Virus record (IMG/VR): IMGVR_UViG_3300027797_000003
DNA: 38,390 nt
Strand: one strand, 5' to 3'
Source of the DNA: a virus
A model generated the notes under the pieces. It was not told the origin of the DNA and searched no databases. It was given only the letters and a program-made list of their open reading frames with translations. A program made the translations under genes and the position numbers. Of this stretch, positions 10,054 through 26,053 are shown in pieces. How positions within the stretch are numbered: the stretch's first letter is position 1; each line of letters starts with the position of its first letter.

Positions 10054-10061
10054 AATGGGGG

Positions 10062-12386: not shown

Positions 12387-14120
12387 TTGGGCTGGAGGTT
12401 GTCCTTGCTGAAGCATAGCCATCATATCTGGGGCAGGTTCACCAGCAGGGGCAGGGGCACCAGAAGGTGCCGCAGCCCCAGCAGGAGCGGGGACAGGAGG
12501 GGTGCCACCTACTTGCTGCTGAGGCTGGGCTAGAAAATCATCAGGGTTCTTAACACCAAAACCGAACTGTAGCACATGTGCCGCAAGTTTAGACATGTCA
12601 ATAATACCTGCACCAGCAAACGGTGCCATAGCATCAACCAGTTGTAATGCCATTTGACGCTTAAAGGATTCGTTATGTGGTTGTGTTGAACCTGCTGCTA
12701 CTTCAAAGTCAAAATCACCTTGCAAATAGTCACGGTCATAGTTCACCCAAATTGGTTCACCGTCACGACCCATAACACGGGCAACTTGCTCACCTTGCAT
12801 AAACTGTTGTGCCAATTGTAACATGCGGCGTGCAACCTCGGCAATAGCCTGTTCTACAACAGCCAACTTGTCGCTGGTGCGTGCGTTTGCAGCATCTTGC
12901 ATCAAGGATGATTCTGTTGCTGTGCGGCGGATTTCGGAGACAGCACCACGCTGAAACTCTGATACACCAGAAATACGGTCAATATCACCAATAATCATGT
13001 TAGACTGGTTATAGAACTCTGGTGGGTTAATTACCGCTGGGAAGGCTGTAACAACACCACCCAAAGGTTCATCACTAGTAACTGGAACCATAACATTATC
13101 TTCATCAGATTCTAATGCTGAACGACCCAATTGGTCAAACGCTGATTCCTTATACAGATATTTGCGGCTAAACTTTTTGCGATGATTCATCATCTGTGAA
13201 CGAGTTTCGTTTAGTTCTCGTTGCAAAGGTTCAATAGATTCCAAATCGCCAATAGGATAGAAATGGTCTGGAACATCATAGTTCCTAATCATAACAAATG
13301 GTTGCCCAAACGCATAAGGCATTTTCATTGGCTTAACCAAAAACATGTCTGAACCTTCAGCAAAAACGCTCATACTATTTGAAGCAATATCGTAGTATTC
13401 CCAAATCTCTGCGTAACCCTCATTTTTGTCGTACACCTTACGGCGACTAGGGTCGTCCGTGTAACGGCTAACAGCCATAGGGGACACATCAATGCGGGCA
13501 GCCTTATTATAACGCTTATCGTTACGGACATCAGCAATAGGGCGGCGGATACGCTGCGCTATCCACTTAATGTCTTTCATTGATGTCGCATCTGGGTCCA
13601 CAAAAATATCGTTAACAGAAACACGCTCAGCAAACGGACTGTCCTCACGAACAATAGTGTTCGGATGTCCGATGCCATCAGGGTTTGCTTCCGAAATCTC
13701 TGCTTCACCTTCAACTTCCTCCTCAACAAAACGGTAACCTACTTTAATCCAACCATGACCGAACGCCAGCATGTCTTTGACAGTGCGGCGAAACTCTGTG
13801 CGAATATCTTTATGTTTCCACCAATAGTTTACAACAGCCTCAGCAACAACACCCTGTGGAGCAAACTCTGCACTGGTAGCATTGACAGTAATCTTAGGGT
13901 AGTTAACAGAAATACTAGGTGAGATAACATTGATTGTGGAAAAGGCAACATTGACCAACATTTGGTCCTCGTTTTTGTAGTCATCAAAATGTTTTCCACG
14001 ATACAGGTCATTCATGCGCTTCCAAAGCCCATCGTAACCGTCTTGTTTGCGCCATTTCTTTGATGCTTCAAGACGCATTTTAGCATGTTTTAGATGGTCT
14101 GCACTAGTTTTCTTAGCCAT
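12384..14120 (-). CDS. Portal protein candidate, 578 aa
   Basis: Size and position (between TerL and scaffold). Low-complexity P/A/G/Q C-terminal tail. Confidence 0.7.
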   Translation of the reverse strand: MAKKTSADHLKHAKMRLEASKKWRKQDGYDGLWKRMNDLYRGKHFDDYKNEDQMLVNVAFSTINVISPSISVNYPKITVNATSAEFAPQGVVAEAVVNYWWKHKDIRTEFRRTVKDMLAFGHGWIKVGYRFVEEEVEGEAEISEANPDGIGHPNTIVREDSPFAERVSVNDIFVDPDATSMKDIKWIAQRIRRPIADVRNDKRYNKAARIDVSPMAVSRYTDDPSRRKVYDKNEGYAEIWEYYDIASNSMSVFAEGSDMFLVKPMKMPYAFGQPFVMIRNYDVPDHFYPIGDLESIEPLQRELNETRSQMMNHRKKFSRKYLYKESAFDQLGRSALESDEDNVMVPVTSDEPLGGVVTAFPAVINPPEFYNQSNMIIGDIDRISGVSEFQRGAVSEIRRTATESSLMQDAANARTSDKLAVVEQAIAEVARRMLQLAQQFMQGEQVARVMGRDGEPIWVNYDRDYLQGDFDFEVAAGSTQPHNESFKRQMALQLVDAMAPFAGAGIIDMSKLAAHVLQFGFGVKNPDDFLAQPQQQVGGTPPVPAPAGAAAPSGAPAPAGEPAPDMMAMLQQGQPPAQ

Positions 14121-14323
14121 TACTCTGCATCCTTAATACCGTCATGCCAACCAATATGGTTGTCAATTTTACTACCAATTTTATCTACTTTATTTCCTAT
14201 TACTCGTAGAAGAATCCTGCCTTCGGCGTGTTGGGCGGTGTTTTCTTTACGAAGTTTTTGTAATACGACAACTGTTGGTCCCGTGATAATGGCGACAATA
14301 ATTGGAACCCAGATTTGCGACAT
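14120..14323 (-). CDS. Small membrane-anchored protein, 67 aa
   Basis: N-terminal hydrophobic helix IWVPIIVAIITGPTVVVL; TAATG coupling to the portal gene. Confidence 0.5.
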   Translation of the reverse strand: MSQIWVPIIVAIITGPTVVVLQKLRKENTAQHAEGRILLRVIGNKVDKIGSKIDNHIGWHDGIKDAE

Positions 14324-14326
14324 TTG

Positions 14327-14551
14327 TTACATCCAGTTCGTGACTGGTTCAGCATTGTACCCGTTAATTGCAGCCTGTTCAACAGTTTGACGCTGACGCT
14401 CACGAATAGTAGGACCATGAAAATCTTCTTGACCGTAAGTAAACCCAAGACGCACCCCTTTAATATGGCATTTAAAACATGTAAACCCACGACGAGGAAC
14501 CTCATCAACATAAAACGCTTTATTGCAATTTTCGCACATTAATTCCATCAT
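14327..14551 (-). CDS. Zinc-ribbon protein, 74 aa
   Basis: CENC...x18...CFKC, two CxxC pairs. Confidence 0.55.
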   Translation of the reverse strand: MMELMCENCNKAFYVDEVPRRGFTCFKCHIKGVRLGFTYGQEDFHGPTIRERQRQTVEQAAINGYNAEPVTNWM

Positions 14552-14564
14552 AAAAGCACAATCT

Positions 14565-14572
14565 GTTCCCTA
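14565..14572 (-). promoter_or_regulatory. TAGGGAAC junction octamer (copy e)
   Basis: Plus strand reads gttcccta. The TAG is the TerL stop; the next start (14551) is 13 nt downstream. Confidence 0.5.
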
Positions 14573-16201
14573 ATTACCAAAAGGAGTGCGCTGACGCACA
14601 TTATGGGCACCCAAAAAGGTTTTTTCTGGACCATTAGGACCAAACATATGTTGTTCCCACCACAAAAGACTATTAGTAGGAGGAGCCATATCTTGACGAT
14701 ACTCTGGAAGCCACACATATTTAACCATCTGTGCAGCAATAGCCAAAGAAATAACCCTGTCATCATGCGGTGACCCAGCCATCTTACCATTCTCCTTACG
14801 CACGAAGGTGCGTAACTCGGCAATAGTTAAACGGTCATACACTTCAATACTGGAATCACGCAAAACAGCACTAAGTTCATCAATCATCAAAGGCTTAGAT
14901 GTAGCAGTTGTACGCCAACCCAAAATGTCTGTAGCCTCAGGACGAACCCTAGCCAACTTACGCTGCCTATAAAGATTCTTATAACCATATTTCTGTGCTG
15001 CTTTAAGAGTTGTTAAACCATGATTATTGTTTTCAATACCCAACAACGCATTATTATACCACCAACCCAACTCAGCCAACAACTCACCAAATAGGTCTGG
15101 TTCAATTCGTCCATGCCAATGAGCGCAAACAATCCCTGTAGTGGCATCAATTATGTGCGCTGAACTGTAGTCTCCGTGAGATAAACCTTCAGCAACATCG
15201 GCACCAACCACATAAACGCCTTCACTGCGTGGAAAATCCCAGATAGACAACTCACCAGAATCAACATAACGGAACTCACCATTACCGCTAGAGTACAAAT
15301 GATAATACCCGTTATCTGGGTCAATAGTAACCATGTCGTCCAACATTTGTATATCAAAAACAGGGTTACCTGATTTAATAAAGGCTTCCTCGGGGAAAGA
15401 TGGGTACTCTTGATGCAATTGCCAAGGGTGCATGTTAGATACTTTACTAGCATACCAATCTTCGTTTCGTTCACCGTCAGCAGACCAAGGGAAAAAGATT
15501 CCTTTAAACTTGTTGGTTCCAGTTTGGGAACCAACCCATAATTGATGATAAAAGTTTCCTGAACCGTTAGCAGTGGACAAACCGATAACACGACCACCGA
15601 CATCGGCTACAGGTTCAATAGAAGCCCACGCTTCCTCAGCGTTAGGCAAAAACGCCCACTCATCCACAATAACCAAATACACCGACTCACCACGAGCAGG
15701 GTCATTACTAGAAGGTAATGATTCTATGCTGGATTCGTTACTGAAAACCATTTTAAGTTGGTGTTCAGTTGTTTGTGAAGGTCCACGCTCTTTCATCCAC
15801 TGAGGCATAAAGCGGTAACCATATTTAGCCTTGGCTAACAGTTTGACAGATTCACGCTCCGTGCGTGACAACATAACAACAAAACGGTCTTGCCAAAAAA
15901 ATGTTAACCAAAACGCATAAGCAGAAACCAAAGTAGAAAACCCAATCTGACGGGCTTTTAACACAATACTATAGCGTTCCTCCAACCAAACAGACACAGT
16001 TTCCAACTGTGCGGGACGCAACTCAAACTTTGTTCTACCCTTTTCAGGATGTTTAATAAACCAAAAATTAGAACAAAAATATGAAAACGCTTCCAACAGT
16101 TCCTCAGGTGTAGCACCTTCGGGACCACGACATTTACGAAACTCTTGTTCGTTAAGTAGTTGCCTTAATTCCATTTCGGTTCTCCGCCCCAAGGACCCCA
16201 T
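14570..16201 (-). CDS. terL: Terminase large subunit
   Basis: 543 aa with a Walker A-like VLKARQIGFSTL and Walker B-like YLVIVDEWAF, plus a C-terminal nuclease-like half (VGADVAEG...DYS...HDDRV). The true start may be the in-frame ATG at 16174 (MELRQLL). Confidence 0.85.
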   Translation of the reverse strand: MGSLGRRTEMELRQLLNEQEFRKCRGPEGATPEELLEAFSYFCSNFWFIKHPEKGRTKFELRPAQLETVSVWLEERYSIVLKARQIGFSTLVSAYAFWLTFFWQDRFVVMLSRTERESVKLLAKAKYGYRFMPQWMKERGPSQTTEHQLKMVFSNESSIESLPSSNDPARGESVYLVIVDEWAFLPNAEEAWASIEPVADVGGRVIGLSTANGSGNFYHQLWVGSQTGTNKFKGIFFPWSADGERNEDWYASKVSNMHPWQLHQEYPSFPEEAFIKSGNPVFDIQMLDDMVTIDPDNGYYHLYSSGNGEFRYVDSGELSIWDFPRSEGVYVVGADVAEGLSHGDYSSAHIIDATTGIVCAHWHGRIEPDLFGELLAELGWWYNNALLGIENNNHGLTTLKAAQKYGYKNLYRQRKLARVRPEATDILGWRTTATSKPLMIDELSAVLRDSSIEVYDRLTIAELRTFVRKENGKMAGSPHDDRVISLAIAAQMVKYVWLPEYRQDMAPPTNSLLWWEQHMFGPNGPEKTFLGAHNVRQRTPFGN

Positions 16202-16596
16202 CCATCACCGTAGCGGTTATCACCATAATCATATATAGCCATCATAGCCTTACCGCTAATGATAGGATTATATAACTCAGCACATTTGGTTAACACACCA
16301 GCCTCTTGCAAAAAACCCTTCTTAGAGTATCTATTAGGTTTGCACCAAAACTTGTTAATTTGAAACAACCCAAGAGAACCACCATTAGGGTCATTTTTGT
16401 TTATCGCCGATGCGTTGCATCGGGATTCACGCCACATAATATAATCCACAGCATACATCATGTCCTTGCTATCAGAAACCATCTCTATAATATCATAGTG
16501 TTCAACACATTTAATACTAGGATACTTCTTTGCGTGGACAACAGTAGGTGAAGCCAACGAACATATGGCAATAGCCAGTATAATTATTTTCTTCAT
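16165..16596 (-). CDS. Secreted lytic transglycosylase / lysozyme-like muralytic enzyme, 143 aa
   Basis: N-terminal signal-like MKKIIILAIAICSLASPTVVHA. GH23/SLT-type catalytic pattern WRESRCN...GSLGLFQIN. Confidence 0.7.
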   Translation of the reverse strand: MKKIIILAIAICSLASPTVVHAKKYPSIKCVEHYDIIEMVSDSKDMMYAVDYIMWRESRCNASAINKNDPNGGSLGLFQINKFWCKPNRYSKKGFLQEAGVLTKCAELYNPIISGKAMMAIYDYGDNRYGDGWGPWGGEPKWN

Positions 16597-16635
16597 AAAA
16601 CCATCCTAAATGACCGTAGTCATTGATTGGGAATA

Positions 16636-17181
16636 TTACTTAACTGATTCTTTCCAAGCCAACACGGCTTGTGGAGTATCATCTCCAGCGACATAACGGA
16701 TATGCCAAGGTTCATCGGGAACAACTTCCCAAGACCAACCAAACTTTGCAATGTTATTAAACATCCATTCTAAACGCTTACCATTAGAACTGGCAACATC
16801 AACTGCTACACCCAACATGTGTTTTGAACATGTTTTGGCATCATCGTTTGGTGCAGCCAATGGCGCATTTTTGGGTTTCAAAAACCATTTCTTACCATTG
16901 TAGGTGCGTGTTGACGCACCAACAATAGGTTCTTGTTGATAGCGTTGCAGAAAACCCTTTTTTTGTTGCGCTATACTGCGAAACATATCACCGCTACTAG
17001 TCGGAGTTAGCAATATGCCATCCGCTTTAGCAGCAGCAACCAATGCCTCCCAAGCATCAGCCACACACAACTCTAAAGAACCACCACCAATAGACTTACG
17101 CAACATAGCAGGGGTCACCTCACTAGGTTTCTTGCCCTTAAGATGTGAGCAAGGCTTAAATGGTGTTACAAATAGTTTCAA
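16636..17181 (-). CDS. Peptidase M15 (VanY / D-Ala-D-Ala carboxypeptidase-like) endolysin
   Basis: Zn-ligand pattern SKHMLGVAVDV plus EPWHIRY. The tracked start is TTG directly after the upstream TAG, so the true start is uncertain. Confidence 0.7.
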   Translation of the reverse strand: MKLFVTPFKPCSHLKGKKPSEVTPAMLRKSIGGGSLELCVADAWEALVAAAKADGILLTPTSSGDMFRSIAQQKKGFLQRYQQEPIVGASTRTYNGKKWFLKPKNAPLAAPNDDAKTCSKHMLGVAVDVASSNGKRLEWMFNNIAKFGWSWEVVPDEPWHIRYVAGDDTPQAVLAWKESVK

Positions 17182-17430
17182 CTATTTGGCTGCTTTCTTA
17201 GCAGCCTTCTTAACAGTCAACGGCTTACCCTGAGAAGCCTTAGAACCAATAAAAGATGCGACTGTTGGGTCACCAATCTTTGTTGATGCCCACGACAAAC
17301 CAGCAGCCACCAACGGCATAGCCATAGCAGTCAAAGCAGGGTCAACATTATACTTTACACACAAATAAACAACAATACCCAAAACACCACCCTTAGCGGT
17401 TTGGTCAACTGACTGATTACGATTATTCAT
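17182..17430 (-). CDS. Holin-like membrane protein, 82 aa
   Basis: Two hydrophobic segments (GVLGIVVYLCV, ALTAMAMPLVAAGLSWA) and a Lys-rich C-terminus. Lies immediately upstream of the endolysin. Confidence 0.55.
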   Translation of the reverse strand: MNNRNQSVDQTAKGGVLGIVVYLCVKYNVDPALTAMAMPLVAAGLSWASTKIGDPTVASFIGSKASQGKPLTVKKAAKKAAK

Positions 17431-17590
17431 TTTTATCTCCTAAGAGTGCACCAAGCATGTGAACCATGATGGCTACCAATGTGATTTGTATTCCCAATGT
17501 TCTAGTTGAACCAGACAAAGTGATTAGAACCATACCAGTTCCAGCCAATGTCCATGTCAAACTATGAATCTCGGATACAATTTTCTTCAT
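17423..17590 (-). CDS. Small two-helix membrane protein, 55 aa (holin/antiholin partner candidate)
   Basis: Below the track size cut-off. ATG at 17590; sequence MKKIVSEIHSLTWTLAGTGMVLITLSGSTRTLGIQITLVAIMVHMLGALLGDKNE. 8-nt overlap with the next start. Confidence 0.45.
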   Translation of the reverse strand: MKKIVSEIHSLTWTLAGTGMVLITLSGSTRTLGIQITLVAIMVHMLGALLGDKNE

Positions 17591-17598
17591 ATAGTAGT

Positions 17599-19092
17599 CT
17601 ATTTGTTCCTTCTTGTACCAGCCGCAACAGTGGCTGCCCCAGCAGCAACTGCTATAAGGGTTCTACGAGTATCCACAGGAACAGTAGACCCCAACGGAAC
17701 ATAATCACCTAAACCATCATCAAACACATTTATCGTTTCCTCAAACGCATTTCTTACCTGCGTAGGAGCATCCTGAACTGCATCAACCAAAGCATCCAAC
17801 TGGGTGTTATCTAATACGGTTACATCCAAGGTTTCAAAAATTTCTGTTGCCTGTTCAGCAGTTACTACAGCCAGAACTTCAGTGTTAGATGCTAATGATA
17901 CTGCTTGGTCGGCTGTTACAGCCGTACCAAGAATCTGTTCAATCAAAGCAACCGCCTCAACCTCGGTCAAATCTTCTATAGAATCAACCACAGTGTCAAA
18001 CTGTTCATCAGTTAAAGATATATCACCATCACCAGCGTCCTCCAAGGCTTGGACAAGTTCAAGTGGCAATTCCTCAAAGATTGCTGGCGGAAGCAACACA
18101 GGCAGTTCTGGTGCGTCTGGGAAGATATCTGGAGGTAGTGGCATCATGTCGGGGGGTTCTGGCATAGTGTCAGGTGGCTCAAGTAACTGACCAACAAATG
18201 GTAGTGTATCAAATGTCTCAATAGTAGGGTAAGTGTCAGGAGGTAGTTCTAATGTTTCTGGTGGATATGTTTCAATCTCTGGTAGTACGAGGGGTGGTAC
18301 CTCTGGCATGGTTGGTGGCTCTATTTGTGGTAGAGGAACCGTTGCTGGCGGGTCTGGTATTGTCGGCTCTGGTTGGGGTATGTAAATTATTTGAGGTATC
18401 GTAATAGTTGGTGGGTTTGTTACAGTCACAGTCCCATAGGGTGCAATAGTAGTAGTGGTTGTCGTTGATGTCGTGGTAGTCGTGGATGTTGTGGTAGATT
18501 CCCATGATGTTGTTGTTTCCTGAACTGTAGTTGTGGTGGATGGCAAAGTTGTTGTAGTAGTAGTTGTGGGACTAGCAGTTGTTGTAAACGCCTCATCAGG
18601 AACCATAGTCCATCCCTGATTGTTGATATTCCAAGCAAGCATTACGCATGTTGACCCGCCATCTTCGTACATCCAAACATCCAAAGGATGGCTGTCTGCA
18701 CTAATGTCTATCGGACCTGATGACATCCATGTGCAATGCTGATAATTCCAGTTACCCCACTCATTACCATTAATATTGATTATGCCACCGTCATCTGTTG
18801 CATACATAAACTCAATCGTATTATGTTCAGGGATTTCTATAAACCCCGTCATATGCACCATAAAATAGTCAACAGTGCAGTCCTCAAACGGTTCACCGTT
18901 GTAAGAACGGTTAATGTTGTTTTCTACTTCACTACCGCACTCGGTATAGATGTCATCTGACCGTGTAGGAGGTACTTCGTCAATTGTGTAGTAAGTAGTT
19001 TGTAGCCCTGCTATTGGTTCAGCGTGGACAGTTGGGGTAAACAGTGCAAGTATTGCTACTGGCGCAAATATCAGCCAACGGGAATAACGCAT
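17599..19092 (-). CDS. Secreted, C-terminally anchored PA14-domain protein with Thr-rich and Pro-rich linkers, 497 aa
   Basis: Signal-like N-terminus MRYSRWLIFAPVAILALFTPTVHA|EP. PA14-like pattern GLQTTYY...DYFMVHMTGFIEIPEHNTIEFMYATDDGGIININGNEW. Poly-Thr tract, P/E-rich repeats, an acidic region, and a terminal hydrophobic helix plus TRRNK. Confidence 0.65.
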   Translation of the reverse strand: MRYSRWLIFAPVAILALFTPTVHAEPIAGLQTTYYTIDEVPPTRSDDIYTECGSEVENNINRSYNGEPFEDCTVDYFMVHMTGFIEIPEHNTIEFMYATDDGGIININGNEWGNWNYQHCTWMSSGPIDISADSHPLDVWMYEDGGSTCVMLAWNINNQGWTMVPDEAFTTTASPTTTTTTTLPSTTTTVQETTTSWESTTTSTTTTTSTTTTTTIAPYGTVTVTNPPTITIPQIIYIPQPEPTIPDPPATVPLPQIEPPTMPEVPPLVLPEIETYPPETLELPPDTYPTIETFDTLPFVGQLLEPPDTMPEPPDMMPLPPDIFPDAPELPVLLPPAIFEELPLELVQALEDAGDGDISLTDEQFDTVVDSIEDLTEVEAVALIEQILGTAVTADQAVSLASNTEVLAVVTAEQATEIFETLDVTVLDNTQLDALVDAVQDAPTQVRNAFEETINVFDDGLGDYVPLGSTVPVDTRRTLIAVAAGAATVAAGTRRNK

Positions 19093-20004
19093 CTAAAATG
19101 TTATTGTGCCAGAACCAGTAAAAGTATAAACATGATACCCTGCACGACTTGATGAACTGTATGTTGGCGAACCTGTAGTAGCCAACGCTTCATCAAAAGC
19201 ATTTGTGTAAGCAATAATAACTACGCCTGAACCACCACTACCCGAAGTGGCTGCGTTGTCGGATGAGGCACCACCACCCGAACCTGTGTTGGCTGTAGCG
19301 TCAGTACTAGACCCACCAGCAGTTGCACCGCCACCGCCACCTGCGCCGTTGCCGACTCCAGAAAAACCACCGCCACCACCGCCACCTGCTCTAGATGTAT
19401 TCGTGCCGTTAATGCTGCTATTAGTGCTTGTTCCTCCAGCAGCACCTACACCTGTTTGAGCATTTGTTCCAACACTTGACGAACCACCACCACCTGAAGC
19501 CACATTGGTTGCATTGGCGGCAGGTGTGGAACCACCATCAAAACCTTGTCCACTTGTAGCAGCACCACCAGCACGCAACACACCTGACGAAGCACCTGCG
19601 CCACCACCCGAACCGCCTGCACCACCGTTTGTGTTGTTGTTGGCACCAAATCCGCCACCATTTGAGGTTATGGAACTGAACACAGAGTTACTGCCAACGG
19701 TACCGTCAGAACCTAAGCCTGTGCTTTTTGCACCGCCAGCACCAACGGTAACAGTTAATGCTGTTCCAGATGCAACAGCAAAAGATGCACTAGTAAGATA
19801 TCCACCCGCTCCACCACCACCGCCACAGCCACCTCCACCGCCTCCACCGCCAGCAATAACTAGATATTCAACAGTTGGTGTTGGATTACTTGCAGCAGCA
19901 GACCAGTATGTTGCAACCTGACCAGTGTTATTGCGTTGACGCTTCGGTTGTTTCCAAGAAGCAACCGAAGTACCACCAGAAACGTTTCTTAAAAAAGAAG
20001 GCAT
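19093..20004 (-). CDS. Glycine-rich fibre-like protein, 303 aa (paralog of 20364..21299)
   Basis: Shares the MPSF..N.SGG N-terminus, the YLV(I/V)AGGGGGG core and the C-terminal ATTGSP(T/S)Y...GYH(V/I)YT..G(S/T)G(T/S)IT with the other copy. Confidence 0.6.
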   Translation of the reverse strand: MPSFLRNVSGGTSVASWKQPKRQRNNTGQVATYWSAAASNPTPTVEYLVIAGGGGGGGGCGGGGGAGGYLTSASFAVASGTALTVTVGAGGAKSTGLGSDGTVGSNSVFSSITSNGGGFGANNNTNGGAGGSGGGAGASSGVLRAGGAATSGQGFDGGSTPAANATNVASGGGGSSSVGTNAQTGVGAAGGTSTNSSINGTNTSRAGGGGGGGFSGVGNGAGGGGGATAGGSSTDATANTGSGGGASSDNAATSGSGGSGVVIIAYTNAFDEALATTGSPTYSSSSRAGYHVYTFTGSGTITF

Positions 20005-20007
20005 GAT

Positions 20008-20364
20008 TTAACCTTCCAAAGTGGGAAAAGCAATCCAAGACAATGATTCTTCATCCCAAACAAAATTGCCTTCAGGTTTCGGTGTTGGTGGCTGCCAATC
20101 ATTATTGGCATCCAGCAACCAAGAAGGATAAGGTTGCAATGCCACAAACTGGTCTTTTACAGAATCGTAAGCAAAACCTACACCTGCATACTGTTTGCGA
20201 AAATTGTTGTTGTAAGAAGTTTGTACCCATTCGCCACCCAACAAACCATGACAAAAATCTTTACCCTTCTGTTCGCTTTCTACACCATCAATCAAAAGTT
20301 CATTGTTGTGAACAACAATAACATTAGTGACAATTCCATCTGTAATTTTTGCAAAGTGTGCCAT
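20008..20364 (-). CDS. Hypothetical protein, 118 aa
   Basis: Start moved to the ATG at 20364 (TAATG overlap with the upstream stop). Sequence begins MAHFAKITDGIVTNVIVVHNN. Confidence 0.6.
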   Translation of the reverse strand: MAHFAKITDGIVTNVIVVHNNELLIDGVESEQKGKDFCHGLLGGEWVQTSYNNNFRKQYAGVGFAYDSVKDQFVALQPYPSWLLDANNDWQPPTPKPEGNFVWDEESLSWIAFPTLEG

Positions 20365-21299
20365 TAGACCGTAATACTCCCTGTTCCTATCCAAGTATAA
20401 ATATGATAACCACCAGTTTTGTTATAACTAGGTGAACCTGTTGTTGCTGTAGCAACATCAAACGAATCAGCATAACGGACAATAACTATGCCTTGATAAC
20501 CTGCTTGACCTGTTCCATATAAACCACCACCACCACCGCCACCGTAGTAGGTTGATACGCCACCGTTGTTAACTGTTCCACCGTTTCCACCCCCACCGAC
20601 TCCACCAGATGCGTCACCAACGGAGTTATTGCCACCGCCACCACCACCAGAATATGCGGTTGATGAACCAGTTATAGACGAATAATGTCCTGTGCCACCA
20701 GTTGAGTTAGAAGTACTATCTGTTGCTGCTGCTCCTGCACCTCCACCACCACAAGCCTTTGCACTTCCACCACCATAATTGCCACCTCTAAAACCCTGAG
20801 TCGGTGAAGATAATGTTCCACCGTTTCCACCACGATTACCACCACCAGATGAACCACCAACAGAGCCATCCCTAGCAGTCGCATCGCCATAAGCACCACC
20901 ACCGCCACCAGTAGCAGTTATGGAACCAAGAACAGAGGCAAGACCATTACCACCATTTACTGTGCCACCTCCGCCAACGGTTACGGTGACAGCAACACCA
21001 GCGGTCACAGTTAAAACAGATTCTGCTGCTCCATTACCACCAGTAGTTTCACCAATAACAGAAGAACGGTAGCCACCACCGCCACCGCCGCCAGCAGGAT
21101 AACTAGCGTTTACTGCGCCTTGACCCCCGCCGCCACCACCAGCAACAACAAGATACTGAAAGTTCGGTGTAGGTGCAGAAGAAACCCCACCAGCCCAATA
21201 ATCGTTAACTTGATTAGTGTTGCCACGCCGTGAGCGTGGCGCAAGTGCGCCACCGCCAATGACCTTTCCTCCAGATGTATTTTTAACAAAAGAAGGCAC
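20364..21299 (-). CDS. Glycine-rich fibre-like protein, 311 aa
   Basis: GTG start; long poly-Gly/Gly-Ser/Thr body; paralog of 19093..20004. Confidence 0.6.
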   Translation of the reverse strand: MPSFVKNTSGGKVIGGGALAPRSRRGNTNQVNDYWAGGVSSAPTPNFQYLVVAGGGGGGQGAVNASYPAGGGGGGGYRSSVIGETTGGNGAAESVLTVTAGVAVTVTVGGGGTVNGGNGLASVLGSITATGGGGGAYGDATARDGSVGGSSGGGNRGGNGGTLSSPTQGFRGGNYGGGSAKACGGGGAGAAATDSTSNSTGGTGHYSSITGSSTAYSGGGGGGNNSVGDASGGVGGGGNGGTVNNGGVSTYYGGGGGGGLYGTGQAGYQGIVIVRYADSFDVATATTGSPSYNKTGGYHIYTWIGTGSITV

Positions 21300-21309
21300 T
21301 TAGCCAACC

Positions 21310-21678
21310 TTACGCAGTAATGCGGTTAACGTACCCGTAAACAACAATACTAGTGTTAGTTGCGGCATAAGCCGTAATAACCTTAGGGGTAGCATTACCC
21401 TGAAGAATAAGACCTGGAACTACTAGATACAAACCGTTTTCAGCCTTAACAGTATATTCAATTTCGTTTGTACCAGCAGTTACACCACCATACTGAATGG
21501 TAAGTTTGCGGTCAGTCGTATCATAGTTGACTGCATACAACCAAACTTCATCAATTGTTGCAGGAGTACTAGAACCTGTGTGAATAGTTGGACCAGCGAC
21601 ACCAGACGAACCAGAGTTAATCAATAACCCCAAACCGTTTGCTGTACCGCTTAATGCTAGTTTAGTAAAAGTTGCCAT
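21310..21678 (-). CDS. Hypothetical beta-rich protein, 122 aa
   Basis: ORF track. Preceded by TAGGGAAC and a GAAGGAAC SD-like element. Confidence 0.6.
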   Translation of the reverse strand: MATFTKLALSGTANGLGLLINSGSSGVAGPTIHTGSSTPATIDEVWLYAVNYDTTDRKLTIQYGGVTAGTNEIEYTVKAENGLYLVVPGLILQGNATPKVITAYAATNTSIVVYGYVNRITA

Positions 21679-21693
21679 ATACTATGTTCCTTC

Positions 21694-21701
21694 GTTCCCT
21701 A
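21694..21701 (-). promoter_or_regulatory. TAGGGAAC junction octamer (copy a)
   Basis: Plus strand reads gttcccta. The TAG is the stop of 21699..22016; the next start (21678) is 15 nt downstream. Confidence 0.5.
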
Positions 21702-22016
21702 ATTAATAAAAATCTGTTGCTCAACCGTATCTGTACGGTTAAATACTTCCAACTCCAACCACTCATCAGGGTCATTGTAATCAAAGTTTAATGTGTCAAA
21801 CTCCAACGGATAAACCCGTACAAAGTAATCGTTTGCCAAATCGCCACGAGTTGCACCTGTAGCACCTGCTGCTACATAAAAATCATACTCTAGAGTCCCA
21901 CGATACTGCAAACCCTTTTCAGACCAAAACGCATACAACAAGTCACCCAAAGTTTGACCCGTTGACGGATACGCCACGGATAGAGCCTCATACATGGCAT
22001 CATTAGTTGTAGTCAT
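21699..22016 (-). CDS. Hypothetical acidic protein, 105 aa
   Basis: ORF track; TAATG coupling to the upstream gene. Confidence 0.6.
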   Translation of the reverse strand: MTTTNDAMYEALSVAYPSTGQTLGDLLYAFWSEKGLQYRGTLEYDFYVAAGATGATRGDLANDYFVRVYPLEFDTLNFDYNDPDEWLELEVFNRTDTVEQQIFIN

Positions 22017-22453
22017 TATCTGTCCTTGCTAACCTTAGTATCCAAACGAAACCTCTGCTCTGATGCTGCGCTAGCGGCAATCAACTCAGTCAACTCACTA
22101 TCAGACAACTCACTGGCTTTGCCGCTATGTTCAACCTGAAGTTGAACGGGAGCCAAACGACCAGTAGCCTGCAAATACAACTTAGCCGAATTGTTATCCC
22201 CCTCAAGAGCACGCTGGAACAGGTTGTCCAGCAACTGTTGTGTTCTTTCGGGTGATTGCTGTTGTTCTGTTACTCTTCGTTCCCACTCGGATTTAAATAT
22301 AGGTTTCTTTTTCCAACGCCTGAGCGTTGTTTCGTCTATAGATTCTTGTTTGGCATACTGGTTTTGACTGGATGGTATCCGACCTACTGATGGGGTACAC
22401 AACCAGTTTAAAAACTTTTCTTGCCGTTCATCCAAGTTAGAGTTTTCTGACAT
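22016..22453 (-). CDS. Terminase small subunit-like / HTH DNA-binding protein, 145 aa
   Basis: First gene of the leftward arm. N-terminal HTH-like segment (SQNQYAKQESIDETTLRRWKKK) and a helical C-terminus. The call rests on position and architecture only. Confidence 0.45.
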   Translation of the reverse strand: MSENSNLDERQEKFLNWLCTPSVGRIPSSQNQYAKQESIDETTLRRWKKKPIFKSEWERRVTEQQQSPERTQQLLDNLFQRALEGDNNSAKLYLQATGRLAPVQLQVEHSGKASELSDSELTELIAASAASEQRFRLDTKVSKDR

Positions 22454-22470
22454 TCTATAGAAGCGGTACT

Positions 22471-22478
22471 GTTCCCTA
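22471..22478 (-). promoter_or_regulatory. TAGGGAAC octamer (copy c), 17 nt upstream of the first leftward gene
   Basis: Plus strand reads gttcccta. No upstream gene here, so the TAG is not a stop codon. Confidence 0.5.
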
Positions 22479-22493
22479 GGGGGACTAGGGGGA
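22476..22493. repeat. Perfect tandem duplication CTAGGGGGA x2
   Basis: ctaggggga at 22476-22484 and again at 22485-22493. Confidence 0.9.
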
Positions 22494-22494
22494 A

Positions 22495-22534
22495 TGTTAC
22501 AGTTGTGTTAATTCTTTGTTACATTTGTGTTACA
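22495..22534. promoter_or_regulatory. Three TGTTACA sites (near-palindromic TGT-N-ACA) at 22495, 22517 and 22528; operator candidates
   Basis: Start-to-start spacing of 22 and 11 bp (helical phasing) inside the divergent intergenic region. Confidence 0.5.
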
Positions 22535-22552
22535 GTTTGAGTGTTTTGTTGT

Positions 22553-22576
22553 GGGTGTTGGGTTTCACAAAAATGG
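22553..22576 (+). promoter_or_regulatory. Degenerate relative of the 22-bp rightward motif
   Basis: GGGTGTTGGGTTTCACAAAAATGG compared with GGGTGTGAGCGTCAAAGATAGG. Only a partial match with an apparent 2-nt insertion. Confidence 0.2.
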
Positions 22577-22579
22577 TCG

Positions 22580-22587
22580 TAGGGAAC
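22580..22587 (+). promoter_or_regulatory. TAGGGAAC octamer (copy g), plus-strand orientation
   Basis: gtcgTAGGGAACaggg in the divergent region, facing the early genes. Confidence 0.4.
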
Positions 22588-22641
22588 AGGGTGTTTTGAG
22601 TATGGGGGGTCAGGGGGGACTCAACCTGTTGGTTTCGTCCC

Positions 22642-22669
22642 GTTAACGCCAGTGCAACGGGGCGTTAAC
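22642..22669 (+). promoter_or_regulatory. 9-bp inverted repeat gttaacgcc / ggcgttaac with 10-nt loop (operator or hairpin)
   Basis: Read directly. Each arm contains the palindrome GTTAAC. It sits just upstream of the AT-rich -10-like region. Confidence 0.45.
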
Positions 22670-22689
22670 CGAGATATTCTATTATACAA

Positions 22690-22695
22690 TATAAT
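22690..22695 (+). promoter_or_regulatory. Consensus -10 hexamer TATAAT (rightward early promoter candidate)
   Basis: tataat within AT-rich gagatattctattatacaatataatac. Only weak -35 candidates (TTAACC at a 19-nt spacing). Confidence 0.35.
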
Positions 22696-22731
22696 ACACT
22701 GGAATGTGTTTAGCGTGGACAAGGATGGGTT

Positions 22732-22857
22732 ATGGAAGTGTTGAGAACAACCGTTGTAGTAGTAGGGTCAGTTTCTTTGACCTTGACAGTACTTGGTCTA
22801 CTTATCAGGATACTGTTTAACGCTGTTGATGATTGGACACATAATGAGTTTGACTGA
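22732..22857 (+). CDS. Possible 41-aa single-pass membrane peptide
   Basis: ATG after AAGGA. Sequence MEVLRTTVVVVGSVSLTLTVLGLLIRILFNAVDDWTHNEFD. Overlaps the next small ORF by ATGAGTTTGACTGA. Confidence 0.35.
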   Translation: MEVLRTTVVVVGSVSLTLTVLGLLIRILFNAVDDWTHNEFD

Positions 22858-22909
22858 TGAAGAGATGGTTTTGTTAAAACTGTTGAAGAAACCGAAACCA
22901 AAGAAGTAA
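22844..22909 (+). CDS. Possible 21-aa peptide
   Basis: MSLTDEEMVLLKLLKKPKPKK. Its stop TAA overlaps the ATG of 22909 (TAATG). Confidence 0.25.
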   Translation: MSLTDEEMVLLKLLKKPKPKK

Positions 22910-23304
22910 TGGGTTACACTAAGCCAGAGTTGCGTGCAAGGATTGTGTCAGCCGTTAAGGCTGGCACTGCTGGTGGTAACGCTGGGCAGTGGTCTGCCCG
23001 TAAAGCCCAAATAGTAGCGCAACGCTACAAGAAGGCTGGAGGTGGGTACAGTGGACCCAAGACCAGTAAACAGCAATCGTTAAGTAAGTGGACATCTGAG
23101 AAGTGGACTACCAAATCTGGTAAACCATCCACACAGGGACCTAAGGCTACAGGTGAACGATATTTGCCTAAGAAGGCTGTGGCGGCTTTGTCTCCTAAGG
23201 AGTATGCTAAGACTAGTGCTGCTAAGCGTAAGGGTACTAAGGCTGGTAAACAGTTTGTTAAGCAACCTAAAGATATTGCTAAGAAAACTAAAGGTTATAG
23301 ATAA
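22909..23304 (+). CDS. Small Lys-rich basic protein, 131 aa
   Basis: ORF track; K/A/G/T-rich with a GERYLPKKAVAALSPKEY core. Confidence 0.7.
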   Translation: MGYTKPELRARIVSAVKAGTAGGNAGQWSARKAQIVAQRYKKAGGGYSGPKTSKQQSLSKWTSEKWTTKSGKPSTQGPKATGERYLPKKAVAALSPKEYAKTSAAKRKGTKAGKQFVKQPKDIAKKTKGYR

Positions 23305-23567
23305 TGGCTAAGACGGCAGCGTGGACAAGAAAAGAAGGCAAGAACCCTAAGGGCGGTTTAAACGCTAAGGGTCGTGCATCTTACAAGGCTCAAACAGGTG
23401 GTACATTGAAACCACCTGTCTCTGCTAAGGCTGCAAAGAAATCACCTAAGAAAGCGGCACGGCGTAAATCGTTCTGTGCAAGAATGGGCGGCATGAAAGG
23501 ACCTATGAAGGACTCCAAAGGTCGCCCAACTCGCAAAGCATTGGCTTTGCGTAAATGGGACTGTTAG
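23304..23567 (+). CDS. Small Lys/Arg-rich basic protein, 87 aa
   Basis: TAATG coupling. Motifs KEGKNPKGGLNAKGR and SFCARMGGMKGPM...LRKWDC. Confidence 0.7.
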   Translation: MAKTAAWTRKEGKNPKGGLNAKGRASYKAQTGGTLKPPVSAKAAKKSPKKAARRKSFCARMGGMKGPMKDSKGRPTRKALALRKWDC

Positions 23568-23589
23568 TTATATAAAAGATTATATAAAA
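23568..23589. repeat. Direct repeat TTATATAAAA x2 (12-bp period)
   Basis: ttatataaaa at 23568-23577 and 23580-23589, immediately after the 23567 stop. Confidence 0.85.
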
Positions 23590-23895
23590 TAAGGGTCCCC
23601 CACAATTAGACCCCCACCCCATGTGACCAAGGTCATAGCATGGACAAGTCGTATAACCCCCCAAAACTAGTACCCCTCTCTGGCTCTAATGCAATAGAGT
23701 ACCAGACGGAGCGTGCCGTAGCCCCCCCCATGCCCCCCCACCCGCATTAGGGTCGTGAATAGTGTCACAATCGTGCGGGAACACGGGCATCCGTGCGCCC
23801 ACATGACCTTCCCAACCAAAAACGGTGCGCTAATCGCAGGCAGGCGGACCCGTGCGAAGCAGACCATTTTTCCAGTGTTCTATATGTGCGGGGGC

Positions 23896-23917
23896 GGGTG
23901 TGAGCGTCAAAGATAGG
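23896..23917 (+). promoter_or_regulatory. 22-bp rightward motif, copy 1
   Basis: GGGTGTGAGCGTCAAAGATAGG. Confidence 0.6.
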
Positions 23918-23971
23918 AGGCAACTGTTCGGCAATGCCACACAGTCACTAACGCTTACGGTGTGTGTGGCT

Positions 23972-23993
23972 GGGTGTGCATGTCAAAGAGTTG
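23972..23993 (+). promoter_or_regulatory. 22-bp rightward motif, copy 2
   Basis: GGGTGTGCATGTCAAAGAGTTG; 76 bp after copy 1. Followed by a 12-bp stem hairpin at 23996-24022 with two G-U pairs. Confidence 0.6.
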
Positions 23994-24043
23994 TTGTGTC
24001 GTTCGGCGTTGCCGAGTGACACGGTGTTCATGCCTGCGTTGGT

Positions 24044-24065
24044 GGGTGTGAGCGTCAAAGAGGTA
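24044..24065 (+). promoter_or_regulatory. 22-bp rightward motif, copy 3
   Basis: GGGTGTGAGCGTCAAAGAGGTA; 72 bp after copy 2 and 81 nt before the ATG at 24147. Confidence 0.6.
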
Positions 24066-24146
24066 GAGTGGTGGTTGCAACATGGTGTTGTGACATTAGG
24101 TGTTCGTGAACGAACAGCCACGCAAGTGATAGTCTGGGAGGACATC

Positions 24147-24392
24147 ATGGCACGCAAAGCAAAAGCAGTAGTATCCGTGTTTGGTCGTTATGCCAAGTGC
24201 GACAAGTGGTGGACGGTTGCGTTTGATAACGCTACCGAGGTGTTGGAAACTGGTACGGTGGTGGATGTCCGTAAGGTGGACGGAAGCGAGAACAAGGTTA
24301 TCATCCAGTCGTTGATTGCTTCGTCAATCGTGGAGTCGGATGAGCAGAACCCAACCTTGTTTTACACTTACACGAAGGTGTCCAGCAAGTAA
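24147..24392 (+). CDS. Hypothetical protein, 81 aa
   Basis: In-frame ATG at 24147 preceded by GGGAGG. The tracked 23964 start would read through the motif copies. Sequence begins MARKAKAVVSVFGRYAKCDKWW. Confidence 0.65.
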   Translation: MARKAKAVVSVFGRYAKCDKWWTVAFDNATEVLETGTVVDVRKVDGSENKVIIQSLIASSIVESDEQNPTLFYTYTKVSSK

Positions 24393-24407
24393 TCACGGTT
24401 GGTTGAG

Positions 24408-24440
24408 GGTACACGAGCAGTTTCCCCCTGTTCGTGTGCC
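24408..24440 (+). terminator. 13-bp stem hairpin with two G-U pairs (plus-sense RNA only)
   Basis: ggtacacgagcag-tttcccc-ctgttcgtgtgcc, 16 nt after the 24392 stop. A second small hairpin (tgcaca-ccg-tgtgca) and a TATAAT at 24462-24467 follow. Confidence 0.5.
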
Positions 24441-24484
24441 TGATTGCACACCGTGTGCAGATATAATGTGACTGGGAGGTCATT

Positions 24485-24631
24485 GTGAGTAATGCAGTTA
24501 TTGAGCGTAAGTTGTTACCTAAGGGCGTGTACTGTTGTCCACGCTGTGATAAGCAGGCTGAGGTGTTTGTGCGTGTTGTTGAGGTGGCTTGTAATCAGCA
24601 TGGACAGATGACTCGCAAAGGGAGGAAGTAA
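24485..24631 (+). CDS. Small Cys-containing protein, 48 aa
   Basis: GTG 5 nt after GGGAGG. Sequence VSNAVIERKLLPKGVYCCPRCDKQAEVFVRVVEVACNQHGQMTRKGRK. TAATG coupling to the next ORF. Below the track cut-off. Confidence 0.5.
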   Translation: MSNAVIERKLLPKGVYCCPRCDKQAEVFVRVVEVACNQHGQMTRKGRK

Positions 24632-24798
24632 TGGAAGCAGTTAGGGTTGGTAGTTTCGTTGTGTATAAGGGTATGCCTAGTAGTCCTATGTTTAGGGTTG
24701 CTGAGGTGGATGGTTGGGGTCAGGCAGTGATTTATGAGTTATCGGGTCGTAGCAAGTACGCTAGGACTGTGGAAATTAGACAACTGGAGGTGGTGTGA
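24631..24798 (+). CDS. Hypothetical protein, 55 aa
   Basis: MEAVRVGSFVVYKGMPSSPMFRVAEVDGWGQAVIYELSGRSKYARTVEIRQLEVV. TGATG coupling on its 3' side. Below the track cut-off. Confidence 0.5.
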   Translation: MEAVRVGSFVVYKGMPSSPMFRVAEVDGWGQAVIYELSGRSKYARTVEIRQLEVV

Positions 24799-25001
24799 TG
24801 TTTAAGCAGGGTGATGAGGTTGCGATTGCCCATAAGGAGGGCATTTGGATTGTTAAGGACGCTGATGAACGCTTTGATAATGCTATGATGTTGGTGTGTC
24901 CTTGGGATGCAAGTGGGTTTGTGTTGTTGGCTGTTCGTGGTAAGGATTGCCAACTGTTAGACCCGAAGCATTGTAAAATCTACAAGAAAGTGAGTGAGTA
25001 A
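24798..25001 (+). CDS. Hypothetical protein, 67 aa
   Basis: ORF track, with the start moved from GTG 24795 to ATG 24798. Confidence 0.6.
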   Translation: MFKQGDEVAIAHKEGIWIVKDADERFDNAMMLVCPWDASGFVLLAVRGKDCQLLDPKHCKIYKKVSE

Positions 25002-25093
25002 TGGATGAATATAATCTAATGCTAATGATTATGGGGTTTGGTGCGTTTTGTGTTCTTATTGGCTACAGCATGGGTAAAGGAGCAGGGAAATGA
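25001..25093 (+). CDS. Possible 30-aa membrane peptide
   Basis: MDEYNLMLMIMGFGAFCVLIGYSMGKGAGK; TAATG and ATGATG couplings. Confidence 0.35.
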   Translation: MDEYNLMLMIMGFGAFCVLIGYSMGKGAGK

Positions 25094-25290
25094 TGTCACG
25101 CAGAGATTATCAGGTGTTAGCAAGGTGCATAGAGTTGGTTGGTGATAATCATAGAGGTAGGGAGGGTGAGGTTGCGTTGGGTGAGTTGGTGGAGGATTTG
25201 TGTAAGCGATTGCACCTAGAAAATCCTCGGTTTGATGTGGAGAAGTTTGTTGCTAAGTGTAATGTGTCGTTGCCACCGAAGGAGGCGTAA
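25090..25290 (+). CDS. Hypothetical protein, 66 aa
   Basis: ORF track. Confidence 0.6.
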   Translation: MMSRRDYQVLARCIELVGDNHRGREGEVALGELVEDLCKRLHLENPRFDVEKFVAKCNVSLPPKEA

Positions 25291-25529
25291 TGTTGCTTTG
25301 GGTTAAGACTGGTTATGGTTGGGAGGCTGATGCACCGTATATTGAGGGTAGTTATATTGTGCAAGGTGCAGTAGGTGAGGGGTTTGTTTTGACAAAGTTT
25401 TGGGATTGTGCTCGTAATGGTGGACAAAATCAGTCGGAGTATGAACATCCGAGGGTGTTTAAGTCATTGCGCAGTGCAAAGGATTGGTGTCAAATAGATT
25501 ATGATGGTCAGTGTGGTTTAACACAATAA
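25290..25529 (+). CDS. Hypothetical protein, 79 aa
   Basis: ORF track; TAATG coupling. Confidence 0.6.
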   Translation: MLLWVKTGYGWEADAPYIEGSYIVQGAVGEGFVLTKFWDCARNGGQNQSEYEHPRVFKSLRSAKDWCQIDYDGQCGLTQ

Positions 25530-25535
25530 TAGGTT

Positions 25536-25559
25536 TCCGTTGGCAATCCTGCCAACGGA
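25536..25559 (+). terminator. Perfect 10-bp stem hairpin tccgttggca-atcc-tgccaacgga
   Basis: Read directly, 7 nt after the 25529 stop. No U-run follows. Confidence 0.45.
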
Positions 25560-25583
25560 TTAGTATGAACTGGGAGGTTCATT

Positions 25584-25994
25584 ATGAGTAAGCAAATATC
25601 GGTTAAGGTTAGTCGGGTTAAGTTGTTGGAGCAGTTGTCGGAGGCATTTCGTAAGGCGAAAGCACTTAGAGATGAATATGATAAGGCTTTGGTTGAATAT
25701 AACAAGAAAATTGAGGGTGTTGAGAAAAAGGTGCTAAACAATTTAGGTAAGGGTAAAGTCACTGAGTTTCGTGATACTACGGGACATTATGACCGTGTGA
25801 ACAAAGTGATTGAGTATCGGTTCACGGTGACTTTTCCTGATACCTTTTTCGTTAAGCCTGAAGCACCTGATTATCCTACAATGTTGAGTCAATATGACTT
25901 GAACGAGTTGGAGCAAATCATTAAAATGCTTGAGTTGTGTGATAGTGATACTGTTTCTACTGGCGTTTATGGTAATGTAGCCCGATACTTGTAA
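25584..25994 (+). CDS. Hypothetical protein, 136 aa
   Basis: ORF track; GGGAGG SD. Confidence 0.65.
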   Translation: MSKQISVKVSRVKLLEQLSEAFRKAKALRDEYDKALVEYNKKIEGVEKKVLNNLGKGKVTEFRDTTGHYDRVNKVIEYRFTVTFPDTFFVKPEAPDYPTMLSQYDLNELEQIIKMLELCDSDTVSTGVYGNVARYL

Positions 25995-26002
25995 TCGGGT
26001 CA

Positions 26003-26031
26003 CCGTGTGGGGGTTCGTAGCCCTCACATGG
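26003..26031 (+). terminator. 11-bp stem hairpin (two G-U pairs) with 7-nt loop TTCGTAG
   Basis: ccgtgtggggg-ttcgtag-ccctcacatgg, 9 nt after the 25994 stop. Followed by tacaatttg and then motif copy 4. Confidence 0.5.
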
Positions 26032-26053
26032 TACAATTTGCACATACACAGAT

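Follow-up and report, generated by a model that had tools for sequence, protein, structure and literature searches.

Why should a tailed phage, whose particles are assembled in the cytoplasm, carry among its late genes a large protein that looks built for the cell surface? The question is raised by gene X (positions 17599-19092, minus strand) of the viral contig IMGVR_UViG_3300027797_000003 from IMG/VR; its 38,390 nucleotides were analysed as one stretch, which is called the window here. The phage is of the tailed double-stranded DNA (dsDNA) type, as indicated by its terminase large subunit (TerL) and P22/SU10-type portal. The open reading frame (ORF) of X begins with ATG directly after the stop codon of the upstream gene and encodes 497 amino acids (aa). 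A preliminary description of the sequence had taken the product for a cell-surface adhesin and not a virion protein, and this is borne out by the signal peptides, four ectodomain cysteines, a membrane partner, chromosomal homologues and the PA14 fold reported below. That X is a Sec-exported, membrane-tethered and stalked lectin displayed on the infected cell is well supported by sequence comparison and structure modelling. Its benefit to the phage can be proposed tentatively: the explanation that we prefer, at slightly less than evenly likely, is that the lectin, anchored by X and the product of the adjacent gene Y, occupies host-type surface glycans and so hinders superinfection and the loss of progeny.

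Architecture of the gene X product

The first 24 residues (19021-19092) are predicted to be a Sec signal peptide that signal peptidase I would cleave at VHA/EP. The signal region, MRYSRWLIFAPVAILALFTPTVHA, has the basic n-region MRYSR, the hydrophobic core WLIFAPVAILALF and the cleavage region TPTVHA/EP. This n-h-c layout with a VHA/E site agrees with the Sec-like N-terminus noted earlier. No Cys follows the site, and a lipobox Cys is absent from X. Among the X-family members listed, about 90 are longer than 300 aa. The 69 of them that begin with a hydrophobic segment all have signal peptides in which a basic n-region precedes a hydrophobic core with Pro at its end and a small-x-small site, mostly AxA; the remaining members look like N-terminally truncated gene calls. 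The signal sequences themselves vary between X subfamilies while this grammar is kept, and export itself is therefore likely to be under selection. A signal-peptide scan of the window found only one other such ORF, the SLT-like protein at 16165-16596.

The mature protein would begin with a PA14 lectin-type beta-sandwich (aa 25-170, 18583-19020). Pfam PA14 (PF07691) matches X over aa 62-131 at E=2e-4; the 21.6 bits of this match fall slightly short of the gathering score of 24. Close homologues of X carry precomputed PF07691 matches. A profile of 25 X homologues matches the solved PA14 domains of RsgI (6qe7, E=8e-11; 6qdi, E=8e-9). When the AlphaFold model of X was compared with the PDB by Foldseek, the best match was 6xac (E=8e-6, probability 1.0, about 100 aligned residues, root mean square deviation 2.3 Å), and the top 26 matches were all PA14 domains, among them those of MpIBP, an RTX (Lap) adhesin, RsgI, anthrax protective antigen and Epa, with Flo lower. 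Family profile and predicted fold are thus in agreement with the PA14 domain proposed before. The full-length model has a mean predicted local distance difference test score (pLDDT) of 49, which is low because the linkers are disordered; the score lies at about 70-80 in aa 78-170. Each of the 64 complete close homologues has exactly four Cys, and these lie without exception in the ectodomain. In the alignment residues D100-D101 correspond to TDD in RsgI3 PA14A and to NG in PA14B; PA14A has the DcisD calcium- and sugar-binding motif, and PA14B has lost it (PMC6852018). With these residues at the DcisD position, a calcium-dependent lectin is the natural reading of the head. No second PA14 head is present in the window.

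Behind the head lies a Thr tract that is predicted to be disordered (aa 171-216, 18445-18582), in which 30 of 46 residues are Thr, in keeping with the run of roughly 40 Thr-dominated residues reported earlier. It is followed by a Pro-rich extended linker (aa 217-340, 18073-18444; 37 Pro in 124 residues), the length of which varies between relatives. The repeats rich in P, E, T and I that had been described there hold as a Pro-rich stretch of low complexity and not as exact tandem repeats, as the Tandem Repeats Finder returned only short repeats of 9, 15 and 18 bp, all inside the Thr tract. The whole Thr/Pro-rich segment comprises about 170 residues.

The C-terminal third is the core of the X family and consists of helical repeats, the motif DYVPxGSxVPVxxRRTLIAxAAG and a basic tail. 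In X the acidic helical-repeat module spans aa 341-470 (17683-18072), is rich in V, L, D, A and E and has 30 Asp or Glu among its 130 residues. Modelled alone, aa 341-497 reach a mean pLDDT of 84.8 and a predicted template modelling score of 0.72, with eight short helices, a motif loop and a long terminal helix, as expected from the acidic helical region of the preliminary description. DYVPxGS (aa 463-469) is followed by the last segment (aa 471-497 and stop, 17599-17682), which is made up of VPVDTRR, a short Ala/Gly-rich helix, TLIAVAAGAATVAAG, and the basic tail TRRNK. The motif DYVPxGSxVPVxxRR, directly before the C-terminal helix and invariant, had been overlooked. The hydrophobic helix followed by TRRNK is recovered in the model; nevertheless the hydrophobic stretch in RR-TLIAVAAGAATVAAG-TRRNK has only 15-16 residues, no 19-residue segment reaches a Kyte-Doolittle mean of 1.4, and it is too short and weak to be a confident stand-alone anchor. 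The C-terminal module has no significant structural analogue in the PDB (Foldseek best E=0.5) and no dedicated Pfam or NCBIfam model. Weak Pfam matches of the helical repeats to Glycos_trans_3N and GatB_Yqey were taken as generic similarity between helix repeats. The signal peptide, the four Cys, D100-D101 and the C-terminal motif are all invariant in the 25-sequence alignment; given such positions and the homologues, the features of X are not products of chance.

The head is the exchangeable part of the family. In 80 diverse members Pfam recognises PA14 in 15 (E<=1e-3, best 1.2e-13), SUEL lectin in 10, fn3 in 8 and GLEYA, C-type lectin and LCCL in 3 each, with RCC1, DUF285, beta-helix and PPC as single cases; these heads are binding modules, and no obvious enzyme was seen among the 80. 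Within the phage lineage of the window, 35 complete genes have the PA14 head and 29 an unrelated beta-rich head, and both types share the signal peptide and the Thr linker (e.g. TTTIQETTTSWESTTT), a clean domain swap. The gene directly upstream of X is hypervariable as well (21 clusters in 55 loci). Its clusters in the relatives include sulfotransferase-like and other Gly-rich proteins, and in one close relative (L004, contig Ga0104986_1937) X is directly preceded by a 2OG-Fe(II) oxygenase gene and the portal gene by a ferritin/Dps-like one (5384-6004, 9954-10406), both of them auxiliary genes that the window does not have.

The X-Y anchor and its cellular homologues

Gene Y (17423-17590, minus strand) starts 8 nt after X and encodes a 55-aa membrane protein with a two-helix hairpin (phrog_29041). 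Eighty IMG/VR loci related to the X of the window were compared, adjacency being counted only where the contig reaches far enough, and Y follows X within 0-54 nt in 76 of 76 such loci. A tblastn search of a phage collection with X returned a single match, a 944-aa protein of phage DSL-LC01, which consists of a signal peptide, Thr runs, the C-terminal module of X, a linker of Gly, Ser and acidic residues and then a Y homologue. The fused Y part is 43% identical to the Y of the window, with MKK, TLAG, TLSG and a His invariant. Fusions are also found in the proteins P0212, P0228 and P0242. Of 106 X-family members with YxPxG[ST], most end 33-37 residues after the motif, and a distinct group ends 150-178 residues after it. 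X and Y in the window share all the features of the family, namely the helical module, DYVPxGSxVxVxxRRxLIA, the short helix and an adjacent or fused partner with TLAG…TLSG…H. Because of the natural fusions and the constant adjacency X and Y are treated as one unit, and Y is in all likelihood the obligate partner of X. Side by side with this, the presumed cytoplasmic linker of the fused proteins (P0212, P0228, P0242; L001:3898-6732) was seen to contain a strongly acidic run and, before the hairpin, a conserved FTRNSI[FY]xY that is absent from the separate Y proteins.

A membrane partner makes sense in view of the short and weakly hydrophobic C-terminal helix of X. This helix, rich in small residues, plausibly needs the two helices of Y to stay in the membrane, and the fusions fit a topology in which the X helix runs from outside to inside and the Y hairpin then passes in-out-in. 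Anchoring by sortase or as a PEP-CTERM protein was considered and rejected. As stated in the preliminary description, neither LPxTG nor PEP-CTERM is present; no LPXTG or LAXTG precedes the helix, the conserved motif being instead Y-V-P-x-G-S with 8 further residues before the helix, and the NCBIfam models of C-terminal sorting domains (PEP-CTERM, GlyGly-CTERM and others) gave no match to X at E<=1.

The family is large, with more than 2000 homologues of X, complete or partial, at E<=1e-3 among the candidates scored, all of them metagenomic. A library-wide profile search with the C-terminal module gave 589 clusters at 50% identity. The family is present on at least 482 IMG/VR contigs; the sources are aquatic metagenomes, stated to be freshwater for several. 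No published description of it was found in the literature.

It is not confined to phages. When one genome per prokaryotic species was scanned with the alignment of the C-terminal module, X-Y loci were found in three contigs of metagenome-assembled genomes (MAGs) of Actinomycetota (L006:154-1622 and L007:443-1224 among them); the same scan with the close-family X alignment returned nothing. The MAG version of X has 421 aa, with a signal peptide, Pro/Thr/Gly low-complexity sequence and the C-terminal module, and 2 nt separate its gene from that of a 66-aa Y homologue downstream. The genes around the pair encode ABC exporters, a two-component system, ApbE and a ferric-reductase-like protein, and no holin or VanY homologue lies near these loci. 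The ectodomain is of low complexity only and contains repeats of the types (GT)n and GQSIP. The label Ferrithrix thermotolerans DSM 19514 on two of the MAG records looks like a taxonomic placeholder and not like the name of that strain. In addition, a fused XY protein of 992 aa with RCC1 and DUF285 heads (L091:2399-5377) is encoded between groES-groEL and guaB-guaA on a 44-kb bacterial contig. The presence of X-Y in chromosomes of Actinomycetota without lysis genes argues for a host-derived envelope anchor, and the phages appear to have captured it from hosts of this phylum.

Other observations bear on the host of the window phage, which is probably an actinobacterium with a single membrane. 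X-Y is present on an 83-kb phage contig carrying WhiB, and DSL-LC01 is a metagenome-assembled, predicted actinophage that its authors assign to hosts of the Actinomycetia. The GC content of the cellular X-Y loci (48-49%) is close to that of the window (43.8%). Known phages gave no match in megablast with positions 14000-24000 of the window or in blastn with the Y and holin region, and the closest relative of its TerL, at 52% identity, belongs to an uncultured 42-kb phage. With such a host, the "envelope-spanning" wording used earlier for X is better replaced by wall-spanning. A unimolecular spanin of the T1 gp11 type was also considered and dismissed, since X has no lipobox and the host evidence points to a single membrane.

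These results bear directly on the idea that X is an accessory of the virion or tail, a receptor-binding decoration whose hydrophobic ends would be neither export nor anchor signals. The gene has fibre-like neighbours in L008 and L092 as well as in the window, its heads are exchangeable as in receptor-binding proteins, and a PHROG labelled 'major tail protein' matches it weakly (E=7e-4) over the Thr region, a match that was dismissed as compositional. Such an accessory would not be expected to have canonical cleavable signal peptides throughout its family, a membrane partner and fusions to a two-helix hairpin, or chromosomal homologues among housekeeping genes, and a tailed dsDNA phage is assembled in the cytoplasm. 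X is therefore unlikely to be a virion component, and the decoration just outlined is highly improbable.

Lysis genes and the possible role of the anchored lectin

In the direction of transcription the window encodes a Gly-rich protein, X, Y, an 82-aa membrane protein, a VanY-family peptidase, an SLT-like protein and TerL, in genes that abut or overlap. The order described before, from fibre genes through X to a lysis cassette, stands as far as Gly-rich proteins, X, small membrane proteins and VanY are concerned. The Gly-rich proteins themselves match PF21722 and phrog_2295, the latter of unknown function, and the 55-aa gene Y, which had been counted with the cassette, pairs with X instead. 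The 82-aa protein (17182-17430, minus strand) has two hydrophobic segments and a Lys-rich C-terminus and is a probable holin, although its type has no family match; its start overlaps the end of Y by 8 nt. The VanY-family peptidase (16636-17181, minus strand; PF02557, E=3e-11) is a probable endolysin and cytoplasmic. The SLT/lysozyme-like protein (16165-16596, minus strand; Pfam SLT_3 and SLT) has 143 aa and the Sec signal MKKIIILAIAICSLASPTVVHA/KK (…SPTVVHA/KK), which makes it a candidate second, exported muralytic enzyme beside VanY; the end of its gene overlaps the start of TerL by 37 nt. It is found at this position in only a few close relatives (L009-L011, L038-L039), and elsewhere the similarity lies about 5 kb further downstream. 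One of these relatives, L010, is about 96% identical to the window over aligned stretches and differs by an insertion or deletion of 350 bp; between its holin-type gene and VanY it has an extra, very basic ORF of 112 aa (L010:908-1246) that the window (around 17181-17187) does not have.

A small membrane protein occupies the slot behind Y in all of 73 loci, namely the 82-aa type of the window in 11 and, in 62, a non-homologous 89-aa type (p89) that matches the holin family phrog_443. Comparison of the window (17182-17430) with L003:6763-7032 and L008:7663-7911 shows a non-orthologous replacement in otherwise syntenic phages. PHROGs labels the family of the 89-aa type, phrog_26427, as 'nuclease', which looks like a mis-annotation. 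In 47 of 64 loci VanY is encoded downstream of X at a distance of no more than 1.5 kb, and in the other 17 the terminase follows directly instead. Y itself was considered as one of two holins, a reading rejected because of its fusion to X and its presence in cellular loci.

Such recurrent linkage of X-Y to holin and endolysin genes across lineages makes lysis control the strongest rival to the explanation preferred here. X-Y would be antiholin-like and gate the holin: Y would contact the holin in the membrane, and the lectin would sense an outside cue, such as the state of the wall glycans, superinfecting phage or cells nearby, and bring forward or put off hole formation, in the manner of T4 RI. 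In addition to the holin-type gene in every locus and the frequent VanY, the neighbourhood recurs with other gene orders in unrelated phages. In some of these VanY, a 40-aa protein, fused XY and a holin-like gene are followed by the tail fibre, and in the WhiB-carrying phage the order is X, Y, VanY and two small proteins. The two-helix hairpin of Y is a layout typical of class II holins and antiholins. Moreover, the RsgI proteins, to which the head is closest in sequence among solved structures, are membrane-bound glycan sensors (PMC6852018), and T4 RI is a known secreted antiholin with a cleavable signal peptide (PMC8385771). This rival is weakened above all by the bacterial chromosomes, where neither holin nor lysin is near X-Y, so that the pair has a role apart from lysis. 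The holin-like gene of DSL-LC01 lies on the opposite strand at a distance of about 2.5 kb, and in two further lineages (L092, L096) X-Y follows tail or head genes with no lysin or holin among the annotated neighbouring families, small ORFs there being unexamined. Neither X nor Y matches a holin family. A timing sensor does not obviously need exchangeable heads or a stalk as long as the wall, and the flank of a lysis cassette is a classic insertion site for unrelated cargo. The genes stx and bor of lambdoid phages are cargo of this kind. Taken together, a lysis regulator seems rather unlikely. Its more specific form, in which X-Y senses glycans on the outside and is wired to the holin, so that actinophages would have an equivalent of T4 lysis inhibition and the Y hairpin would set the moment of lysis, is to be regarded as unlikely; the wall-spanning exchangeable lectin may in that case read neighbouring hosts, superinfecting phage or the state of the wall.

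Glycan occupancy by a lectin on the X-Y anchor is favoured because of the exchangeable heads, the wall-length stalk and the ancestry among cellular surface proteins. After cleavage of the signal peptide X would be tethered to the cytoplasmic membrane with its N-terminus outside and its C-terminus inside, and its weak Ala/Gly-rich helix would pack against both helices of co-translated Y and in this way be retained in the membrane. The acidic module would then lie on the outer face of the membrane, the Thr/Pro-rich segment would form an extended stalk through the cell wall, and the PA14 tip would bind a surface glycan through the DcisD calcium site. X abuts its upstream gene, Y begins 8 nt after it and the holin gene overlaps Y, from which we infer that they are co-transcribed and deployed late, together with holin and endolysin; a promoter and terminator scan of the X region stayed at background level. 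The phage would thus have fitted a display device captured from its host with exchangeable lectin heads. On the infected cell and on its debris the lectin would cover glycans, with less superinfection and less re-adsorption of progeny as the outcome.

The same binding could also tether neighbouring host cells just before the burst, as a by-product or as an alternative. Taken as the main role, X would be a flocculin of the phage that sticks the infected cell to neighbouring hosts or particles not long before it bursts, so that even in dilute plankton progeny are freed beside new hosts. The architecture resembles the cell-binding PA14 adhesins (Flo and Epa of yeasts, MpIBP) that are among the top structural matches, with the lectin at the far end of a long stalk; the gene lies within the late block, and the sources are aquatic, several of them freshwater. 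On the other hand the time between late expression and lysis may be short, and the proposal is only partly separable from glycan occupancy, as both rely on the same binding event. We consider it distinctly unlikely.

Several points weigh against glycan occupancy. A lectin tethered to the membrane may be present in too few copies to cover a wall glycan that is abundant, and the recurrent linkage to holin and endolysin fits a role in lysis equally well. Head type does not co-vary with the upstream fibre-like gene, the largest cluster of which splits 8 to 8 between the two heads, and this removes one signature expected if the lectin were matched to the receptor. X alone scores just below the Pfam gathering threshold for PA14, and its full-length model has the low mean pLDDT given above. 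The window contains neither the WhiB motif (G[VIL]WGG) nor tRNA genes, and the host call is therefore indirect. Finally, there is no cultured relative, and every functional point is inferred.

The rest of the window was also inspected. Positions 19093-21299 (minus strand) encode paralogous Gly-rich proteins of 303 and 311 aa (PF21722; phrog_2295) that flank a 128-aa phrog_7759 protein. Transcription diverges from about 22.5 kb, and an early and replication block follows (22909-35624, plus strand) with an AAA_5 ATPase, DUF7192, DUF3846, DUF1599, a PD-(D/E)XK nuclease, a DnaB-like helicase, an AEP primase and RusA, together with a small sigma-70 region 4 protein and a 193-aa protein with a weak match to a proteasome subunit. 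No integrase or WhiB was seen among the ORFs scanned in the window, and the PADLOC models matched none of X, Y, the 82-aa protein and the SLT-like protein.

Comparison with known systems

The known phage proteins that remodel the cell surface are mainly small exclusion lipoproteins from a few model systems, and the X family is larger and differently built. With hundreds of clusters and hundreds of viral contigs it is abundant in uncultured aquatic, largely freshwater phages. The X-Y anchor, which has no entry in Pfam, NCBIfam or the PDB, represents a new anchoring module for envelope proteins of Actinomycetota and marks a conserved but unexplained part of actinophage lysis cassettes. It yields testable hypotheses about superinfection, progeny loss or host finding by phages in dilute plankton, and its lectin heads are perhaps useful as glycan probes for uncultured hosts.

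In general plan X is like the PA14 adhesins, such as Flo and Epa of yeasts and MpIBP of Marinomonas primoryensis, which also have a distal, calcium-dependent PA14 lectin, a long stalk of low-complexity or repetitive sequence and an envelope anchor, and the DcisD position is kept. These proteins are cellular and are held by glycosylphosphatidylinositol or by retention anchors of type I secretion, whereas X is phage-borne, Sec-exported and carried by a new helical module with a 55-aa partner in the setting of a lysis cassette. Among solved structures its head is closest in sequence to the PA14 dyads (6qe7, E=8e-11; 6qdi) of the RsgI anti-sigma factors from Clostridium thermocellum and C. clariflavum, which are anchored in the membrane and sense polysaccharides outside the cytoplasm (PMC6852018). 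The anti-sigma domain of RsgI lies N-terminally in the cytoplasm, and signalling proceeds by proteolysis. X is oriented the other way round, with an N-terminal signal peptide and a C-terminal anchor, and leaves no more than a 5-residue tail in the cytoplasm.

Among phage proteins, T4 RI has a cleavable signal peptide and acts outside the cytoplasm, where it is tied to the holin (PMC8385771). A small protein, soluble in the periplasm of a Gram-negative host, it lacks lectin, stalk and anchor, and its sequence showed no similarity to that of X. A further comparison is offered by PblA and PblB. They are tail-fibre-like proteins without signal peptides that reach the surface through lysis by holin and lysin and bind the wall non-covalently. 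As phage-encoded, carbohydrate-specific surface adhesins they are known from Streptococcus phage SM1 and pneumococcal prophages (PMC4508584). X differs from them by its Sec route and its membrane anchor. Exported, membrane-attached proteins that act against incoming phages are encoded by several phages, e.g. Llp of T5, Ltp of TP-J34 (Streptococcus thermophilus) and the lactococcal Sie2009. They are either small lipoproteins or proteins anchored at the N-terminus, and are expressed early or from a prophage. X, unlike them, lacks a lipobox and combines a lectin head with a long stalk; it belongs to a late gene block and has no match in PADLOC.

The tripartite sorting signals of sortase substrates resemble the C-terminus of X in their succession of a motif, a short hydrophobic helix and a basic tail, with a Pro/Thr-rich wall-spanning region upstream. 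X differs from LPXTG substrates by DYVPxGS, followed by 8 residues and RR, and by the lack of a match to the NCBIfam sorting models. Moreover, its helix continues in many relatives into a cytoplasmic linker and two further helices, which argues for retention and not for cleavage. X is thus a member of none of the systems compared here; it is a phage envelope protein set on an anchoring module that had not been described.

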